Shown piece by piece: positions 8,768 through 56,865 of a stretch of DNA of 64,000 nt. The stretch covers positions 24,129-88,128 of the forward strand of contig JAJDCH010000014.1 of NCBI GenBank assembly GCA_029260905.1. Reading direction: 5' to 3'. The first letter of the stretch is position 1. Each line of letters starts with the position of its first letter. The stretch comes from Candidatus Levyibacteriota bacterium. GTDB taxonomy: Bacteria > Patescibacteriota > Microgenomatia > Levybacterales > UBA12049. Position numbers and translations under genes: made by a program. The notes beneath the pieces are model-generated. The model saw only the letters and a program-made list of their open reading frames with translations, had not been told where the DNA came from and did no database searches.

Positions 8768-9619
8768 TTATTTTTTGTTAAAACTTAAAGATATTTTTGT
8801 TTTTAATCCAATGTGATCTGAGAGAAACCTTTTTTTGTTATTTCCAAGTATTTCTTTTTTGTTGAAAATCTCAATTGTATTTTGTATTTTTATTTTTCCA
8901 GTATTCATTCTTAAAAATATATAATCAATTCTTTTTACTTTTTTGTGTTTGGGTAAAAATGATTGGTGCTGTGTAGGGGTATGAAGTCGTTTAAATAAAT
9001 CCTCAAGCTTTGCATTTTTAATAAAATCCTTATAGATGAGTGAATCTTTTGCGGTATTAAAATCTCCTGCTGCTATTAGATCTCTTTTCTTTTTTGAATG
9101 ATTGTTTATTATTTCTGAAAGTTGCGCAAGTTGAGCGCTATTATACTTGCTAAAACGGTTTTTCATCGAGTAGTCATGGTCTAGATTTGGCGTGATGTGA
9201 GCGTTTAGTATATATACTGGGTAATTCTTCAATTTGCAAACAAGCGCTCCATTCCTAATTATATGAGCTATAAATGAAGTGTTGGTGAGACTTCCTCTAA
9301 TTTCAAAATCGATATATTCTGTTTTTTCAACTTTATGTTTGGAAAACATAACGAGTCCGCCTTTTGGCCCATAAAGATATTTTTTATAAATAACATAAGG
9401 ATATTTTGTAAGTTGTTTTCTTAAAATATTTAAAAAAGAGTATGTGTGAACCTCTTGAAGAAAAATTAAATCAACATCTTCTTTTTCAAGAATTTCAGCA
9501 ATTTTTTTTTGTCTTTTTATAAAATTTATAGAGTCCCAAAAGCCGTGAAGACTATCAAAACTAAATGCTCCCATGGTATTAAAACAAATAAGTGTTAGTT
9601 TAAGGGTTGTAAATTTCAT
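8768..9619 (-). CDS. Endonuclease/exonuclease/phosphatase (EEP) family protein
   Basis: The N-terminus has DLIFLQEVHTY, the catalytic Glu region. The C-terminus has FLSDHIGLK, the EEP SDH motif. Confidence 0.7.
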   Translation of the reverse strand: MKFTTLKLTLICFNTMGAFSFDSLHGFWDSINFIKRQKKIAEILEKEDVDLIFLQEVHTYSFLNILRKQLTKYPYVIYKKYLYGPKGGLVMFSKHKVEKTEYIDFEIRGSLTNTSFIAHIIRNGALVCKLKNYPVYILNAHITPNLDHDYSMKNRFSKYNSAQLAQLSEIINNHSKKKRDLIAAGDFNTAKDSLIYKDFIKNAKLEDLFKRLHTPTQHQSFLPKHKKVKRIDYIFLRMNTGKIKIQNTIEIFNKKEILGNNKKRFLSDHIGLKTKISLSFNKK

Positions 9620-18980: not shown

Positions 18981-19568
18981 TTAGTTATTTTTATTTAAAT
19001 TTTTTTCTATGTATTTACCAATTAGATCTGTTTCGATATTTATCATATCGCCAATTTTTATATTTCTTAACATCGTGTTTGCATAGGTGAATGGAATAAT
19101 TCCGACATTAAATGATTTTCTGTTAACACTGATAACAGTAAGAGAAATTCCATTTATAGTAATTGAACCCTTTTTAATAATTTGTTTGCTAAGCTCAATT
19201 GGATAAGAGATTGTTAGTATTTTGCTGTTTCCATTTTGTTCAATTTTTTTGATTATTCCTATGCCGTCAACATGCCCTTGAACAAGATGTCCGGATATGA
19301 AATCATTAAGCGTAAGAGGTAGTTCAAGATTTACAACATCATTTATTTTTAATGTTTTAAACATTGTTTTGGAAACAGTTTCTGGCATGATATCAATAGA
19401 GAAGCTTTGTTTTGTTGGTAAGTCTACAACTGTTAGGCAAGTACCATTTGCTGAAACACTCATGCCCTTTTCTAGTTTTTGATAGAAATCTTTTTTTGCT
19501 TTAAACACAAAAGTTGATTTCTTATTTTTAATTAACTTTCCCAAATGATTTATAATTCCTGTAAACAT
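18981..19568 (-). CDS. ribE: Riboflavin synthase alpha subunit
   Basis: It has the MFTGII N-terminus and the GHVDG motif (ISGHLVQGHVDGIG) of the internal lumazine-binding repeats. Confidence 0.9.
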   Translation of the reverse strand: MFTGIINHLGKLIKNKKSTFVFKAKKDFYQKLEKGMSVSANGTCLTVVDLPTKQSFSIDIMPETVSKTMFKTLKINDVVNLELPLTLNDFISGHLVQGHVDGIGIIKKIEQNGNSKILTISYPIELSKQIIKKGSITINGISLTVISVNRKSFNVGIIPFTYANTMLRNIKIGDMINIETDLIGKYIEKNLNKNN

Positions 19569-19594: not shown

Positions 19595-19618
19595 GTGAAA
19601 CTCTGCCTAAGCAATTTG

Positions 19619-19744
19619 TCTTTCTTTTATCCCGACTGTACGGTCGCTATTGGATTTTCACCAATTCATGTCGCCTTAGACGACTCGTAGAGTTATCCCA
19701 TTGGGAATCACTACCGATTTGGACTTCCACCAAACCCCGAAAGA
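19619..19744 (-). promoter_or_regulatory. FMN riboswitch (RFN element) aptamer upstream of ribE-ribH-ribA-ribD
   Basis: The minus-strand read is TCTTTCGGGGTTTGGTGGAAGTCCAAATCGGTAGT...TTGGTGAAAATCCAATAGCGACCGTACAGTCGGGATAAAAGAAAGA. P1 is closed by TCTTTC/GAAAGA. The conserved GGUG-AAAUCC and GCGACCGUACAGUCGGGAU blocks match the RFN consensus. Confidence 0.85.
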
Positions 19745-19817
19745 ACAATATAATAATACTTAATCTGAAGCTATTTGTCAAATAAAAATCTATTTTGAAT
19801 TTAGTATAATTAAGAAA

Positions 19818-44608: not shown

Positions 44609-44833
44609 TTAGCTTTGAGGAAATAGAAGTATAAGTGAGATGCCAACTAATAAAGCTGCAAGCACAATTGTCGCAACAACAAAAAATTTTTCAACATTTC
44701 TTTTGCTCCTGTAGGACTCTCCACCCCCACCAAATACAGCAGACATTCCCTCTTCAGGAACTTGAAGAAGAATAACTGCTATTAAAAGTACAGACACAAT
44801 TATTTGAAATATATTAAGTACAGTCGTGAACAT
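44609..44833 (-). CDS. secG: Preprotein translocase subunit SecG
   Basis: It is 74 aa with two TM helices, a Gly-rich loop (VFGGGGESYRSKR) and the LLQ motif in TM1. Confidence 0.7.
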   Translation of the reverse strand: MFTTVLNIFQIIVSVLLIAVILLQVPEEGMSAVFGGGGESYRSKRNVEKFFVVATIVLAALLVGISLILLFPQS

Positions 44834-50287: not shown

Positions 50288-51973
50288 TTACTCCAATCTT
50301 ATTTCATCAACAGCTGCACCACTTGGAATCATGGGAAAGATATTTTCTTCTTTTCTTACCTTTACTTCCAGCACATAAGGTTTTTTAGAATCAAGCATTT
50401 TATCAAGTTCTTTGCTTAATTTTTCTCTTTTTTCAACCCTCTCACCATCAACAAAAAATCCTTTACAAACTTTAATAAAGTCAGGGTTTTTAAGATCAAC
50501 AAATGAATATCTATTGTCAAAAAACAGCTCTTGCCACTGTCTTACCATCCCTAAAAAATTATTATTAAGAATAATTACTTTAACTGGAATTTGTTCTTGG
50601 GCAAGAGTGGCCAATTCCTGAATGTTCATCTGAAAACCTCCATCCCCAATTACTGCAACAACTTCTCTTTCAGGTTTTGCAAATTTTGCCCCAATTGCTG
50701 CAGGAAGCGCAAAACCCATGGTGCCAAGACCACCTGATGTAATAAAGCTATCTGTTTTTTGCGCTTTATAATATCTGGCTGCTACCATTTGGTGCTGCCC
50801 AACATCTGCAACAATTACAGCCTCTCCCTTTGTTTTTAGCGATAGCATGTGAATTACCTCAGCCATTGTAATCTTACCTGATTTGGGATGTGTTTCATGA
50901 GTAATGATTTTCTGATGTTCTTTTTTATAACAATCATTAAATTTCTTAACCCATGCAGTATGATTATTTTTCTTGACCATTGGATAAAGACCAGTTAACG
51001 CCTTTTTAGCATCAGCAACAATTGCTATATCTGCATTTACATTCTTGGAAAGCTCAGCAGGATCTATGTCAACATGAATAATCTTTGCATTTTTTGCATA
51101 ATCAGATACTCTTCCAGTCACTCTGTCATCAAATCTCATCCCCACTGCTAGTATTGCATCAGCTTCATTTGTGAGAAGATTTGGGCCATAATTTCCATGC
51201 ATTCCAAGCATCCCCATATACAATGGATGATTTGATGAAAGAGCAGAAAGGCCGTGAAGTGTTGAAGCAGTTGGTATTCCTGTTTTTTCAATAAACTTAA
51301 CAAGTGCTTCTTCAGCTTTTGAAATAAGTATTCCATGACCAATCAGCATAAGTGGTTTTTTTGCTGAATTTAAAATATTTGAGGCCTCTTTTAGCTTGTT
51401 TGGTTCAGGCTCAGGTATAGATTTATATCCAATTATTTTGGGATTTTGTTTATAGAAATAGTTAAATGACTCAATTTGTGCATTTTTTGTAATATCAATA
51501 AGAACCGGTCCGGGACGATTGGTTGATGCGATATGAAAGGCTTTTGCAAAAACCTCAGGTATTTCCTCAGCTTTTGTTATCTGGTAATTCCATTTAGTAA
51601 TAGGTGCAGTTATGCCTATTACATCTGCTTCCTGAAATGCGTCCGATCCTATTAGATGTGCCGCAACTTGTCCGCTTATGCAAACAATTGGTACAGAATC
51701 AAGCATTGCATCAGTTATTGCAGTGACCAAATTTGTTGCTCCTGGCCCAGATGTAACTAGCGCAACTCCTGGTCTACCAGTAAGTCTTGCGTAGCCTTCT
51801 GCTGCGTGCCCAGCACCTTGTTCGTGACGGACAAGCACATGATGGATCTTGTTTCTGTAGTCATATAAAGCATCATAAACAGGCATGATAGCGCCTCCGG
51901 GATAGCCAAAAATTGTATCAACCCCTTCGTTGACCAGTGATTCCATTACTGCTTTTGAACCATTTATTTTCAT
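50288..51973 (-). CDS. ilvB: Acetolactate synthase large subunit (ThDP-dependent)
   Basis: It has a TPP-binding GDG motif (IGDGGFQMNIQEL) and an N-terminal Pyr domain. It is 561 aa. Confidence 0.95.
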   Translation of the reverse strand: MKINGSKAVMESLVNEGVDTIFGYPGGAIMPVYDALYDYRNKIHHVLVRHEQGAGHAAEGYARLTGRPGVALVTSGPGATNLVTAITDAMLDSVPIVCISGQVAAHLIGSDAFQEADVIGITAPITKWNYQITKAEEIPEVFAKAFHIASTNRPGPVLIDITKNAQIESFNYFYKQNPKIIGYKSIPEPEPNKLKEASNILNSAKKPLMLIGHGILISKAEEALVKFIEKTGIPTASTLHGLSALSSNHPLYMGMLGMHGNYGPNLLTNEADAILAVGMRFDDRVTGRVSDYAKNAKIIHVDIDPAELSKNVNADIAIVADAKKALTGLYPMVKKNNHTAWVKKFNDCYKKEHQKIITHETHPKSGKITMAEVIHMLSLKTKGEAVIVADVGQHQMVAARYYKAQKTDSFITSGGLGTMGFALPAAIGAKFAKPEREVVAVIGDGGFQMNIQELATLAQEQIPVKVIILNNNFLGMVRQWQELFFDNRYSFVDLKNPDFIKVCKGFFVDGERVEKREKLSKELDKMLDSKKPYVLEVKVRKEENIFPMIPSGAAVDEIRLE

Positions 51974-51985
51974 AAAGCCTTTATA

Positions 51986-52009
51986 ATCAAAAACCCGCCT
52001 TCCGCGGGT
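51986..52009 (-). terminator. Attenuator terminator of the ilv leader (also palindromic on the plus strand)
   Basis: The minus strand reads CCCGC-GGAA-GCGGG followed by TTTTT. It lies 15 nt upstream of the ilvB ATG. Confidence 0.55.
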
Positions 52010-52035
52010 GTTTTTGTCATGTTGGACAACACCCG

Positions 52036-52080
52036 ATTAGGGGGTAACTTCAACAACAATGACAAGACCTGTTCTATACA
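52036..52080 (-). CDS. Candidate ilv leader peptide MYRTGLVIVVEVTP (14 aa; 6 of 14 residues are Val/Ile/Leu)
   Basis: The ORF was read directly from the sequence. Its stop codon is followed at once by GGGTGTT, which can pair with AACACCC overlapping the 5' arm of the terminator. An extended -10 (TGcTACTAT, minus 52106-52098) lies upstream. Confidence 0.5.
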
Positions 52081-52144
52081 TAATTTATTATTAAGGGTAT
52101 AGTAGCACCAACATGATTTTTTTTCAATAGTTTTTATTTACTTG

Positions 52145-52172
52145 TTGACGGATATTTTTCATGTGATATACT
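52145..52172 (+). promoter_or_regulatory. Promoter TTGACG-16-TGaTATACT (extended -10) driving a leaderless leu leader peptide
   Basis: TTGACG lies at 52145-52150 and TATACT at 52167-52172, with a TG at 52164-52165. The ATG at 52180 is 7 nt after the -10 box. Confidence 0.5.
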
Positions 52173-52179
52173 CACAGTA

Positions 52180-52224
52180 ATGAATAGCAAAAACCTTCTT
52201 AATCTACTTCTTCTTACCGTTTAG
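52180..52224 (+). CDS. Candidate leu leader peptide MNSKNLLNLLLLTV (14 aa; 7 Leu, including four consecutive)
   Basis: The ORF was read directly. Its stop codon TAG is followed by GGCGGG, which is complementary to CCCGCC forming the 5' arm of the downstream terminator. Confidence 0.55.
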   Translation: MNSKNLLNLLLLTV

Positions 52225-52257
52225 GCGGGAAGTTCGTATGTTGAGAAACGAGCAGAA

Positions 52258-52279
52258 CCCGCCGAAAGGCGGTTTTTTT
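52258..52279 (+). terminator. Attenuator terminator of the leu leader: CCGCC-GAAA-GGCGG followed by TTTTTTT
   Basis: A GC hairpin plus a 7-U run lies 37 nt upstream of the leuA ATG. Confidence 0.6.
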
Positions 52280-52315
52280 GTGCAAGTAAATTGTGATGTA
52301 TAATTTATTTAGTTT

Positions 52316-53806
52316 ATGAAAAATAGAATTTTTATTTTTGATACAACATTAAGAGATGGCGAGCAGGTTCCAGGTTGTCAGTTAAATACAGTAGAAAAAA
52401 TAGAAGTTGCCAAAAATTTAGAAAATTTAGGTGTTGATATTATAGAAGCAGGTTTTCCTATTTCAAGCCCGGGGGATCTTAAATCAGTTCAAGAAATTAC
52501 AAAAGTTATTAAAAAACCAGTTATTGCTGCTTTATCAAGAGCAATTAAGGGAGATATAGATGCTGCAGTAGAATCTTTGAAATTTGCTAAGAGAAAGAGA
52601 ATCCATACATTTATAAGCAGTTCTGATATTCATATTATTCATCAATTTAAATCAACCAGGGAAAAAATAACTGAACAAGCAGTTGAAGCTATAAAATACG
52701 CTAAAAAATATGCAGAAGATGTGGAGTTCTCAGCTATGGATGCAGGAAGAACTGAAAACAAATTTTTAGCTTACTTTATAGCACAAGCTATAAAGGCTGG
52801 CGCAACAACAGTAAATATTCCTGACACAACCGGATATTGTCTTCCATCTGAGTTTGGCGCTAAAATTAAGTATCTATTTAATAATGTGCCTGGGATTGAA
52901 GATGTGATCGTTGCTGTTCATTGTCATAATGACTTGGGGATGGCGACAGCAAATAGTATTGCAGCTGTTCAAAATGGAGCAAGACAACTGGAAGTGACAG
53001 TAAATGGAGTTGGGGAAAGGGCTGGCAACACTGCTCTTGAAGAGGTAGTGATGGTCTTAAAAACCAGAGAGGATCTAAATACAGAGACAAATATAAATAC
53101 ACAAAGAATTTATCCGATCAGTAGACTTGTATCAGGTCTTATGAAAATGCCTGTTCAGGCCAATAAGGCTATTGTTGGAAGAAATGCATTTGCTCATTCA
53201 TCAGGAATCCACCAAAATGGAATCTTAAAAAATAGACTCACCTATGAAATTATCAGCCCTCAGGAAGTTGGAATCAAAGAATCATCTCTTGCTTTAACAG
53301 CAAGATCTGGAAGAGCAGCACTTGCTCATCATTTGAAAAGACTGGGCTTTAAGACAACACCACAAAAACTAGATCAGATTTATCAACAATTTCTTGTAGT
53401 TGCAGACAAGAAAAAAGAAATAAATGATAATGATTTAAGAATGCTGATGGGTCAATCTGCAAGTGAGACCGGTGCTAAAATAGTTTCAATTGAAGTTACA
53501 GGTGGTTTTCCAGCCAAGCCACATGCAACTGTAACTCTTTCTATTAAGAATAAAATAATAACACAAAAAGCAGATGGAAACGGGCCAGTAAATGCTGCTT
53601 TTTTAGCAATTGACAAAATAATAAAAAAGGAAAATAAACTTGAAGAATACCTGGTTCAGGCAGTAACAAGGGGAATAGATGACTTTGCCAAGGTGCATGT
53701 TCAAATTGATTACAAAGGAGTTGTCTACTATGGATTGGGAGTTGATACAGATGTAATTGTTGCATCAGTAAAAGCATATCTTGATGTACTTAATAAGTTA
53801 AAATGA
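52316..53806 (+). CDS. leuA: 2-isopropylmalate synthase
   Basis: The N-terminus [11 protein letters not shown] and the HxH motif ([13 protein letters not shown]) are present. It is 496 aa. Confidence 0.95.
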
Positions 53807-55227
53807 AATTCGATAAACCAAAAACACTTTTTGAAAAAATTTGGGATAGTCATGTTGTTTATCAAAAAGATGGCTATCCTGCTGTTTTATATATAGACAC
53901 CCATCTTATTCACGAAGTCACAAGCCCTCAGGCATTTGAAGGTCTTCGAAAAAGAGGCGTAAAGGTCTATGATACCAATAAAACTTGGGCAACAATGGAT
54001 CACAATGTCCCAACTAAGGATCAAGATAAGATAATTAAAGAACCAATGTCTAGAAAACAGGTTGAAATGCTTAGAACCAATTGTGAAGAGTTCAGTGTCA
54101 GACTTTTTGGACTTGGACATCCATTTCAAGGGATAGTTCATATTATCGGACCTGAGCTGGGAATTACCCAACCAGGTATGACCATTGTCTGCGGAGACAG
54201 CCATACTTCAACACACGGAGCGTTTGGGACAATTGCTTTTGGAATAGGAACAAGCGAGGTTGAGCAAGTTTTGGCAACTCAAACAATTCTTCAGTACAAA
54301 CCAAAAACAATGAACATAAGAATAGATGGCATGCTTGGTCAAGGTGTAAGCTCAAAAGATATTATTCTTTATATTATCTCAAAAATCTCAACATCTGGTG
54401 GAACAGGATACTTTGTTGAATACACAGGAACAGCAATTGAAAATCTTTCAATGGAAGCACGCATGACAATATGTAACATGAGTATAGAAATGGGCGCAAG
54501 AGGCGGTCTTATCGCCCCTGATCAGACAACATTTGATTACATAAAAAGGCGTAAATTTGCGCCAAAAGGCAAAGATTGGGATAAAAAGATTGAAAAATGG
54601 AAAAAACTTACAACAGATAAAAACGCTAAGTATGATAAAGAGCTCTTTTTTGACGCTGCTGAAATAGAACCCATGATTACATACGGTACAAATCCGGGAA
54701 TGGGGATGGGTATTACAGGTACAATTCCATCTGTTGATGATTATGAAACTCAATCACAAAAAGACAATTTTCTTAAAGCAATGGAATATATGGGATTAAC
54801 AGACAAGCAAGGGTCAAAATTGCTTGGAAAAAAAGTTGATTATGTGTTTTTGGGTTCTTGTACCAATTCAAGAATTGAGGATTTTAGAAAAATTGCCAAA
54901 ATAGTAAAAAACAAGAAGAAACCAGATTGGCTTCATGTTTTTGTAGTTCCAGGATCTGCACAAGTTGTTAAGCAAATTGAAAAAGAGGGGTTAGATAAAA
55001 TATTTACTGATGCGGGATTTGACATGAGAGGCGCTGGATGTTCTGCGTGTCTTGGAATGAATGAAGACAAAATACCAGCTGGTAAATACTGCGTTTCTAC
55101 ATCCAATCGAAATTTTCAGGGCAGGCAAGGGCCAGGTGCGAGAACTTTTCTTGCAAGCCCGATGACTGCAGCAGCTGCAGCAATTACAGGAAAAGTAAGT
55201 GATGTAAGAAAATTTTTAAAGTTATGA
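53803..55227 (+). CDS. leuC: 3-isopropylmalate dehydratase large subunit
   Basis: It has an aconitase-family fold with Fe-S cysteines (GSCTNSR, GCSACLG). It overlaps leuA by 4 bp. Confidence 0.95.
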
Positions 55228-55817
55228 AAAAAAAGTTACTCAATAAAATTGTTTCAACTGCAGTTCCACTTGATATGGAAGATGTTGACACAGATCAGAT
55301 TATTCCTGCGCGATTTTTAAAAAGCATAGGAAGAGATGGGTTTGGTTTGAATGTATTTAGAGATTGGCGCTATGATCCTGAGGGCAATCCCAAACCTCAC
55401 TTCATTCTCAATCACCCGCAATACAAAGGAGAGATATTGATAGCAGGAAATAATTTTGGTTGTGGATCAAGCAGAGAACACGCTGCTTGGGCCTTATCTG
55501 ATTATGGATTTAAAGTCGTTGTTTCAAGCTTTTTTGCTGATATTTTTAAAAACAATGCTCTTAACAACACCCTACTTCCAGTACAAGTTAGCAATAAATT
55601 TCTAAGAAAATTATTTGCTGAAGTTAATAAAAATCATCAAACAATAATTGAAGTGGATATTGAAAAACAAACAATAAGTATTCCAAAAAAAAACCTGAGT
55701 GAATTTTTTGAAATAAATCCTTATAAAAAAATTTGCGTGATCAATGGATATGATGATGTAGATTATTTAATCAGTATGAAAGAAAAAATAGCTGATTTTG
55801 AAAAGAAATATGAATAA
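55224..55817 (+). CDS. leuD: 3-isopropylmalate dehydratase small subunit
   Basis: The aconitase swivel domain ([13 protein letters not shown]) is present. It overlaps leuC by 4 bp. Confidence 0.9.
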
Positions 55818-56865
55818 AAAAATTGCTGTACTGGCGGGAGATGGAATAGGGCCAGAAATAACAAAAGAGGCTATAAATGTACTAAAAAAGGTAGCAGATA
55901 AATTTGGGCATCAGTTTGACTTCAGACAAGGGCTTGTTGGAGGAGTAGCAATTGATCAGACAAAAAACCCTTTTCCAGGTGAAACGCTTAAGCTTTGTCT
56001 TGACTCAGATGCTATTCTTTTTGGCGCAATTGGTGATCCAAAATATGATAATGACCCAACTGCAAGGATAAGACCAGAACAAGGACTTCTTGCTATGCGA
56101 AAAGAGCTTGGTCTTTATGCCAACATCAGACCTGTTTTTGTATTCAAAAGCTTACTTGATAGATCTCCTCTGAAAAAAGAAATTGTAGATGGAGTTGATT
56201 TTGTAGTTGTGAGGGAGCTGATAAGCGGCATATATTTTGGAGAAAGAGGAAGAAGTAATGATAATAAATCAGCCTTTGACACATCAGAATATAGCGTTGA
56301 TGAAATAGCAAGAATTGCAAAAGTGGGATTTGAAATGGCTGGGAAAAGAAGGAAAAAATTAACTGTTGTTGATAAAGCAAATGTGCTTGAAACATCCCGT
56401 CTTTGGCGAGAGACAATTCAAAATATGGAAAAAGATTATAGTGATATTGAAGTTGAGTATATGTTTGTTGATAATGCAGCGCAACAAATTATCAAAAACC
56501 CAACCAGGTTTGATGTAATAGTAACAGAAAATATGTTTGGTGATATTTTGACTGATGAGGCATCTGTGATAAGTGGATCTCTTGGTATGCTGCCGTCTGC
56601 ATCGCTTGGACTAAAGACATCTCTTTTTGAACCAATTCATGGATCTTTTCCAAAAGCAGCAGGTCAAAACATCGCAAATCCTACAGGAATCATCTTGTCT
56701 GCTGCTATGCTTCTCGAAGAAGCATTTGAGATGGTTGAGGAAGGAGCAGTGATCAGAAATGCTGTACAAAAAGTGCTTGATGATGGTTTTGGAACAAGAG
56801 ACATAGCAACTAAAAAAGTTATGGGTACAAAAGAATTCGGACAAAAAATAGTTGGAGCTTTATAA
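55810..56865 (+). CDS. leuB: 3-isopropylmalate dehydrogenase
   Basis: The N-terminus [13 protein letters not shown] and the isocitrate/isopropylmalate dehydrogenase signature [25 protein letters not shown] are present. Confidence 0.95.

Follow-up and report, generated by a model that had tools for sequence, protein, structure and literature searches.

The stretch of DNA analysed here, hereafter the window, comprises 64,000 nucleotides from a Candidatus Levyibacteriota bacterium (contig JAJDCH010000014.1, assembly GCA_029260905.1) and carries two operons of branched-chain amino acid (BCAA) biosynthesis in divergent orientation. The ilvB-ilvN-ilvC-ilvD-ilvE operon runs on the minus strand from 51973 down to 45978, and the leuA-leuC-leuD-leuB operon occupies 52316-56865 on the plus strand. 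All nine encoded proteins match NCBIfam models of these enzymes, seven of them above the equivalog cut-off; IlvD and LeuC give family matches below or outside equivalog cut-offs. This work concerns the 342-bp gap between the two operons (51974-52315). An earlier note on this DNA had described there two tiny open reading frames (ORFs) and hairpins with a U-run, and both translation and a terminator scan bear this description out. A consensus scan places back-to-back promoters in the gap, one per strand.

The leu leader lies on the plus strand. Its promoter consists of the -35 box TTGACG (52145..52150; 10/12 match, 16-nt spacer) and the extended -10 box TGaTATACT (52164..52172, hexamer 52167-52172), which is located 7 nt upstream of an ATG. 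The leader ORF that follows (52180..52224, stop TAG at 52222-52224), identified by translation and conservation, encodes MNSKNLLNLLLLTV, with 6 Leu among 14 residues. The putative regulatory codons, CTT CTT aat CTA CTT CTT CTT (52195..52215), are marked by folding and Leu enrichment and also constitute segment 1 of the leader, whose 1:2 structure has a free energy of -16.5 kcal/mol. In the antiterminator (52224..52263, -17.0 kcal/mol), GGCGGG (52224-52229), starting at the G of the TAG stop, pairs with CCCGCC (52258-52263), which contains the terminator 5' arm, and closes an inner stem-loop. The intrinsic terminator is CCGCC-GAAA-GGCGG with U7 (52259..52279, hairpin 52259-52272, -9.1 kcal/mol), and 36 nt separate the end of its U-run from the leuA ATG. 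Between this terminator and leuA, 11 nt upstream of the ATG, there is a perfect TATAAT (52299-52304, plus strand) without a convincing -35 box. A similar box is found in L094 and is absent from other relatives; it could be either a weak attenuator-independent promoter or a chance occurrence.

The ilv leader on the minus strand has the -35 box TTGAAA (52122..52127; 17-nt spacer) and the extended -10 box TGcTACTAT (52099..52107, hexamer 52104-52099), 17 nt upstream of the ATG. Translation and comparison with relatives place the leader ORF at 52037..52081 (stop TAA at 52039-52037); it encodes MYRTGLVIVVEVTP, with 6 Ile, Leu or Val (I/L/V) among 14 residues. Its putative regulatory codons CTT GTC ATT GTT GTT gaa GTT (Leu/Val/Ile; 52046..52066), again marked by folding and I/L/V enrichment, also make up segment 1, and the segment 1:2 structure amounts to -17.3 kcal/mol. 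The G-rich segment UCGGGUGUU after the stop (52036-52028) pairs with the terminator 5' arm: in the antiterminator (52004..52036, -13.9 kcal/mol), CGGGUGUU (52035-52028), which begins one base past TAA, is paired with AACACCCG (52012-52005), closing the stem UUGUC/GACAA. The terminator ACCCGC-GGAAG-GCGGGU with its U-run (51989..52009, hairpin 52009-51993, -10.8 kcal/mol) ends 15 nt before the ilvB ATG.

Most of this anatomy had been read in the same way before. The extended -10 boxes of both strands were recovered by the promoter scan, the leu ORF keeps its coordinates, and the G-rich segment directly after each stop is complementary to the hairpin 5' arm, with pairings found on both strands. 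The corrections are small. The ilv ORF, given as 52080..52036 in the earlier note, was one base off, and the ilv -10 box is farther from its ATG than stated there. For the distances to ilvB and leuA, given there as 15 nt and 37 nt for the hairpins, the ends of the U-runs yield 15 nt and 36 nt.

Both leaders of the window contain the complete four-segment layout of a classical attenuator, and each terminator is placed between its own promoter and its own operon. The region contains 6 terminator-like sites, compared to 0.7 expected in shuffles. We conclude that the gap very probably contains a pair of independent transcription attenuators, ribosome-mediated and of the trp/leu/ilv type, which stand back to back and would serve leuACDB and ilvBNCDE, respectively. 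This is what the earlier note had proposed, and it is strongly supported by four agreeing lines of evidence, namely conservation, covariation, codon-frame evidence and folding under a ribosome mask. The anatomy of leaders, their conservation and covariation, the selection on reading frame (leu only) and the three-state folding are properties that can be shown in silico; from them we infer the transcription start sites, translation of the ORFs, coupling between ribosome and RNA polymerase, and premature termination in vivo.

Leaders in related genomes

The LeuA and IlvB proteins closest to those of the window are 66-79% identical and originate from metagenome-assembled genomes. These homologues are named Saccharimonadales or Patescibacteria, along with a few clearly unreliable third-party annotation (TPA) names. 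For UvrA, homologues of about 80% identity bear the names Levybacteria, Levyibacteriota and Roizmanbacteria, and those at 76-78% the names Patescibacteria and Saccharimonadales. Judged by named homologues of 74-82% identity, the host is most likely a member of Patescibacteria/CPR (the Candidate Phyla Radiation), probably Microgenomatia-like. The ilv and leu operons of the relatives are usually collinear, not divergent, and a homologous leader precedes each of them. Since the operons are collinear in relatives, the divergent layout in the window is likely to be a rearrangement in which each operon has kept its own leader.

A DNA-pattern scan of metagenome contigs returned 29 loci, 21 of them real leu leaders and 8 chance matches. 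The leu set obtained from the pattern scan and gene look-ups comprises 25 leaders: 23 alignable ones (the window and 22 further loci) and 2 divergent ones. For most leu relatives, the final three codons, the stop and a portion of the terminator were prescribed by the search pattern, so that these parts are to be regarded as ascertained and not as independently conserved. The leu peptides, 14-16 amino acids (aa) long, follow the pattern MK...NLL(N/T)L(A/T)LLTV-stop. All 23 aligned leu leaders are preceded by a TTGAC-type -35 box in a constant position, a (TG)nTAnnAT -10 box ends 6-13 nt before the start codon, and a Shine-Dalgarno (SD) sequence is present in none of them. I/L/V-rich leader ORFs occur at the same position before ilvB in 7 relatives, giving 8 ilv leaders together with the window; the peptides of these relatives are MKKILITVVLLVAH, (V)KKFAVFAVVLIDLAT, MKPNNLGLVILIAR, MKNNVLNIVILITP, MRNSAALLVIVALAS, MNRRFAQLIIVLITH and MNRLLSLTNVVVLLIEG, each followed by a stop codon. 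Conservation of the leader ORFs, which the earlier note had pointed to as worth checking, is thus found in 25 leu and 8 ilv leaders.

In most relatives, a gene for an FTR1-family (PF03239) membrane protein is inserted between the leu leader and leuA, overlapping the leuA start by 11 nt (for example L081 2166-3011, L085 2184-3011 and L087 9187-10011). The window has no FTR1-family gene at this place.

All 33 leaders examined possess an intrinsic terminator with a GC stem of -8 to -12.6 kcal/mol (one is weaker) followed by 5-8 U. The terminators were verified individually by folding; their columns are out of register in the alignment. The same alternative structures could act mainly on translation, instead of or besides transcription termination, if the hairpin and U-run hid or exposed the start region of ilvB, leuA or the FTR1-like gene. 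The U-run in fact abuts the downstream ATG in L085, L098, L100 and L109, lies within 6 nt of it in L113 and ends only the 15 nt mentioned above before ilvB in the window, and initiation in a genome devoid of SD sequences probably needs unstructured A/U-rich RNA. On the other hand, a canonical terminator is present at the end of every leader, and the distance from the leu terminator to leuA is 36 nt in the window, while at least 80 nt separate terminator and gene in L088 and L124. Because terminator-gene distances reach these values, occlusion cannot be the general mechanism, and we consider a mainly translational switch very unlikely.

The pairing between the region after the stop codon and the terminator is a common feature of the leaders. 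When all stretches within a leader were compared, the best partner of the terminator 5' arm was the 18 nt starting at the stop codon in 32/33 leaders. The partners co-vary across leaders, as in GGCGGG/CCCGCC, GGCGGGG/CCCCGC, UUUGGGAGA/UCUCCCAAA and the CGGGUGUU/AACACCCG of the window. In a model-guided alignment of 35 leaders, compensatory (double) changes affect 12 of the 14 antiterminator pairs, a count flattered by the fact that this alignment was fitted to the tested structure. Antiterminator cells are paired in 79% of cases versus 64% in shuffles, and the covariation score of 0.270 exceeds that of shuffles (0.104; 0/500 reach it) and of slid controls (at most 0.08).

Reading frame was tested on those leu-leader codons that the search pattern had left free. 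Differences at codon positions 1, 2 and 3 number 346, 253 and 648, respectively, i.e. there is an excess at third positions. Synonymous and nonsynonymous differences amount to 390 and 485 in frame, compared to 11/893 and 88/830 in the other two frames. The leu frame is open in all sequences, whereas the other frames contain stop codons in half of them. These observations support translation of the leu ORF. The composition of the peptides points in the same direction as the operons they precede: Leu represents 36% of leu-leader residues versus 9.9% of residues in window proteins, and I+L+V represent 49% of ilv-leader residues versus 26%, in agreement with the earlier remark that the enriched amino acid matches the controlled operon.

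The covariance model built for leu leaders detects ilv leaders too (E from 5e-5 to about 0.1), as well as two further leaders in relatives. In L089 (18146-18231, plus strand), an Ile/Thr-rich leader encoding MKKNQIITITTIPL is situated upstream of a kinase-like gene and thrC (threonine synthase). Its layout is TTGACA...TGaTACAAT, 7 nt, the ORF and its stop, and then AGGGGTTG...CAACCCCGC-TTA-GCGGGG-T6. In L097, two tandem leaders are found on one contig (302-401 and 831-929, both on the plus strand); the Ile-rich MINKHMINNIVITT precedes a 121-aa ORF, and the leu-like MNSRANNIIVLLLTV precedes a 362-aa protein that is not LeuA. Here the attenuator chassis may control genes outside the ilv and leu operons. 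Since the leu-leader model also finds the ilv, L089 and L097 leaders, one chassis seems to be re-used across several amino-acid operons of this lineage.

Folding under a ribosome mask

The attenuators would work as follows. The transcript would start at or very near the 14-codon leader ORF, and the ribosome translating it would report the supply of charged tRNA. If Leu-tRNA (leu) or Val/Ile/Leu-tRNA (ilv) became scarce, the ribosome would stall on the regulatory codons, that is on codons 6-12 in leu and on the Leu/Val/Ile codons 6-12 in ilv, where the folding window is roughly 5-9. The stalled ribosome would cover segment 1 and leave the G-rich segment 2, from the stop codon on, free to pair with segment 3 into the antiterminator. 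With the ribosome at the stop codon, segment 2 would be masked, and the GC hairpin and U-run could form. With no ribosome loaded, segment 1 would pair with segment 2, and segments 3 and 4 would again form the terminator. Once formed, the terminator would stop transcription before ilvB or leuA. As footprint geometry suggests, the two or three non-regulatory codons that precede the stop (TV, TP, AH etc.) may space the last regulatory codon in such a way that a stall exposes the G-rich segment.

For folding, a ribosome was placed on each codon in turn, and the RNA was masked as far as 12 nt 3' of the first A-site base. In the free RNA, the probability of the terminator is 0.86 for leu and 1.00 for ilv. 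In the leu leader of the window it is 0.87 with the ribosome on codons 1-2, drops to 0.13 or less on codons 3-11, which include the Leu codons, and returns to 0.90 from codon 12 to the stop. In the ilv leader of the window, which behaves alike, the probability begins at 1.0, falls to 0.00-0.04 while the ribosome occupies codons 5-9 (G-L-V-I-V) and is back at 0.84-1.0 between codon 11 and the stop. With one digit (tenths) for each position of the A site, beginning at codon 1 and ending at the stop, the profiles read 880000000018998 for leu and 994400000688999 for ilv. Folding the leaders and scoring the alternatives, as the earlier note had suggested, thus yields a three-state switch; its on/off/on score was reached by 0/200 dinucleotide shuffles of the sequence 5' of the terminator in either leader of the window. 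Across the whole set of leaders, a switch with high probability on the first codons, close to 0 on Leu-rich codons and at least 0.7 on the last two codons and the stop is found in 21/23 leu leaders, and it is clear in 5/8 ilv leaders.

The shuffles also bear on the simplest alternative, namely that the hairpins are ordinary constitutive terminators or insulators and the small ORFs occur by chance in AT-rich DNA. ORFs of 14 codons are common by chance in DNA with 35% GC, and the ilv hairpin scores as a terminator on the opposite strand too. Nevertheless, no gene converges on either terminator, each of which stands between a promoter and the operon belonging to it, and the ORFs, the position of the G-rich segment relative to the stop and the pairing are kept in 25 leu and 8 ilv loci despite different operon arrangement. 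Together with the absence of the switch score from all 200 shuffles, the comparative data refute this explanation, to which we give practically no credence.

A second alternative accepts the switch as real and assumes that it is set by a protein, by uncharged tRNA or by a small ligand, the mini-ORFs being incidental. Some of the conservation could indeed be explained in this way, as the coding segment doubles as an RNA pairing partner (segment 1), and translation of the ORFs is deduced from sequence only. Against it speak the absence of T-box or riboswitch hits, the frame-specific synonymous excess and open frame in all leu leaders, and the enriched amino acids, which track the operon (Leu in leu, I/L/V in ilv, Ile/Thr in the thr-linked leader of L089). 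Moreover, the antitermination window in mask folding coincides with the regulatory codons. We regard control without the ribosome as quite improbable, even somewhat more so than the translational switch.

Several points weigh against the attenuators as we propose them, in addition to the ascertained leu positions and the fitted covariation alignment described above. An unguided MAFFT alignment followed by RNAalifold predicted no pairs, because the terminators, which vary in length, were misaligned. The frame test covers leu leaders only, and the case for translation of the ilv ORF is made by its conserved position and its enrichment in I/L/V; in the window this ORF is just 14 codons long, and 1 Leu, 1 Ile and 4 Val codons are found among them. 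The ilv leaders of L119, L124 and, in part, L121 as well as the divergent leu leader of L089 favour the terminator at equilibrium whatever the state of the ribosome, and such leaders would need kinetic, co-transcriptional formation of the antiterminator. Finally, the proposal assumes that ribosomes initiating without SD on a 5' untranslated region (UTR) of 0-11 nt do so in time for coupling with RNA polymerase.

Initiation of leader translation

With 7 nt between the end of the leu -10 box and the ATG, the transcription start site (TSS) is predicted at 52179 or 52180, so that the leu peptide is plausibly leaderless as judged from promoter spacing. The ilv -10 box is 17 nt away from the ATG, and an A/U-rich 5' UTR of about 10-11 nt without SD is therefore expected; inspection by eye revealed no better promoter nearer the ilv ATG. 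The earlier note had taken both peptides to be leaderless or nearly so and to follow their -10 boxes by 7-10 nt; the spacing holds for leu and fails for ilv, and a leaderless start is plausible for leu alone. Among the relatives, several share a spacing that fits a leaderless start (6-9 nt), and those with a spacing of 10-13 nt are expected to have short 5' UTRs of 3-7 nt.

No SD sequence is found upstream of either mini-ORF, as already stated in the earlier note. As a special feature of these ORFs, however, this absence does not stand: GGAG or GAGG occurs at -18..-4 in 3/57 window ORFs, just as often as in the background. In 11/56 ORFs, a good -10 box accompanied by a -35 box or TG extension is located 3-15 nt before the start, with a mode of 6, compared to 2% of ATG triplets. 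Examples of starts in such context are found at 9619, 12602, 24326 and 32994 on the minus strand and in the 34239 region on the plus strand. In relatives, too, downstream genes often begin directly after the U-run without SD. Since SD motifs are at background level and -10 boxes are close to starts, leaderless and SD-independent initiation seems to be the norm on which this organism generally relies.

Relation to known systems and the wider window

No Rfam family reached threshold on the gap or on the leaders of relatives. The best leader scores were 17.0 bits for Phe_leader (RF01859; threshold 55) on the leu leader and 17.6 bits for Trp_leader (RF00513; threshold 41) on the strand opposite the ilv leader. 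Leu_leader RF00512 gave no match in the region at E up to 10, and the Leu/phe leader RF01743 remained below its gathering threshold. Matches obtained at permissive thresholds (STnc370, snoRNAs, Phe_leader, Trp_leader) are at chance level and were rejected. The T-box (RF00230) was detected neither in the gap at E up to 10 nor in the whole window at gathering score. The covariance search for T-box and leu/ilv leaders, a check already named in the earlier note, thus yields no T-box or other family that fits the leaders. T-boxes resemble the present leaders in choosing between terminator and antiterminator at ilv-leu and aminoacyl-tRNA synthetase genes, but their leader, about 200 nt long, contains a specifier loop but no ORF and senses uncharged tRNA directly, and nothing of this kind is seen here. 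Sequence-wise the leaders form a new family, which in kind is a classical leader-peptide attenuator.

In enterobacteria, leuL contains four consecutive Leu codons, and the leaders of ilvGMEDA and ilvBN contain mixed Ile/Val/Leu codons for multivalent control. Our leaders share with them a short ORF with a run of cognate codons, which in our ilv leader are likewise a mixture of Leu, Ile and Val, the 1:2, 2:3 and 3:4 pairings, an intrinsic terminator before the first structural gene and the provision of one attenuator per operon. In contrast, there is no similarity in sequence or by covariance model, the peptides have half the length (14-16 aa versus 28-32), SD is absent, the 5' UTR is 0-11 nt, and it is precisely at the stop codon that the antiterminator starts. 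Leu is encoded by the genome-common CUU/CUC and not by the rare CUA.

Leaderless leader peptides have precedents. In Deinococcus deserti they have been predicted in 14 cases (PMC4007540), and for the polycysteine leaderless attenuators of mycobacteria the position of the leader peptide at the transcript 5' end has been shown (bioRxiv 10.1101/834739). Leaderless attenuation, called unusual in the earlier note, thus has counterparts in other bacteria. In Deinococcus and mycobacteria the peptide lies at or 1 nt from the transcript 5' end, SD is absent, amino-acid genes are attenuated and leaderless mRNAs are frequent, features which the present leaders would share in so far as they are leaderless. 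The differences are that the phylum here is Patescibacteria (CPR) and that TSSs are deduced from promoter spacing. Furthermore, D. deserti has an SD sequence upstream of the cysS start (PMC4007540, Fig. 6), while the genome represented by the window lacks SD on internal genes as well. For Corynebacterium glutamicum, leader peptides of trpE, leuA, ilvB and aroF are reported, though not as leaderless ones (PMC3890552, PMC11857589).

The earlier note had also expected a T-box in a low-GC lineage. The host belongs to Patescibacteria/CPR and is not a Firmicute, and the ilv-leu operon of low-GC Staphylococcus aureus is reported to be under the control of a Leu-rich attenuator peptide (PMC5794164). 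On this report, T-box control is not obligatory in low-GC genomes. As described there, the S. aureus system is similar in that a leader peptide governs BCAA biosynthesis in an organism of low GC content, and differs in having one attenuator for a fused ilv-leu operon as well as CodY control (PMC5794164). Presenting the leaders as unusual because they are leaderless, low-GC and expected to be T-boxes is thus largely not supported.

A comparable arrangement, with a Leu/Ile-rich leader ORF, a G-rich segment and a hairpin with U-run, is found at leuA loci of Bacteroidota (L030 2819-2975, L075 2853-2969, L023 and L026 about 2814-2960); the leader of L030 reads ...ILLINLLNLLLLLIKK... in its characteristic part. 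LeuA proteins of these loci are 57-63% identical to ours and the closest among the matches listed in the genome scan, where Bacteroidota and Lentisphaerae appear at this level of identity. The nearer relatives described above were reached through homologous-protein searches and the encoding contigs. The Bacteroidota peptides are longer and different. Because the leu-leader covariance model gives E values of just 0.3-0.8, which are not significant, homology of these leaders with the CPR family is unsupported.

CPR bacteria are usually described as devoid of amino-acid biosynthesis, and their gene regulation is, to our knowledge, largely unstudied. The present lineage has complete ilv and leu operons, apparently tuned by conserved leader-peptide attenuators outside Rfam. 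It is quite possible, and we put it forward tentatively, that these are the first recognised cis-regulatory attenuators of CPR, forming one conserved modular chassis for leu, ilv and thr-linked operons of a Patescibacteria lineage that makes BCAAs, unusually for CPR. With the same reserve, the parts of the chassis would be a sigma-70 promoter of consensus type, an ORF of 14-16 codons that lacks SD and is leaderless or nearly so, an antiterminator at the stop codon, and a GC hairpin with U-run. Searches of the available literature brought up no relevant paper on attenuation, on leaderless mRNAs or on the use of SD sites in CPR, which is no proof of novelty.

If the proposal is true, ribosomes reach the nascent 5' end by SD-independent or leaderless 70S initiation fast enough for coupling with RNA polymerase. 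The leaders would indicate transcription-translation coupling in CPR and offer a natural test case for attenuation by ribosomes that work without SD sites and without long 5' UTRs. The mechanism itself is a textbook one, and the value of the finding lies in taxonomic reach and annotation, not in a new principle; what makes it interesting is above all that the host is a CPR bacterium, that SD sites are missing from the context and that the family is uncatalogued. For practical use, the covariance model is ready for annotation of CPR genomes.

With filters switched off, the search for further attenuators detected none in the window beyond the leu and ilv leaders. No aromatic-amino-acid leader was seen in the gap upstream of the DAHP synthase gene, which is filled by a 74-aa hydrophobic ORF, SecG-like by eye (44609-44833, minus strand). 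Among Rfam cis-regulatory elements just one reaches threshold in the window, a flavin mononucleotide (FMN) riboswitch at 19615-19748 on the minus strand (84.9 bits, threshold 66.2), upstream of the ORF at 18981-19568 and those that follow. Finally, the database copy of IlvB (P0123; window 50288-51973, minus strand) is 552 aa long, its start being called 9 codons downstream. Since homologues of 559-562 aa align over the whole 561-aa ORF, the ATG at 51973 is supported as the start of ilvB.

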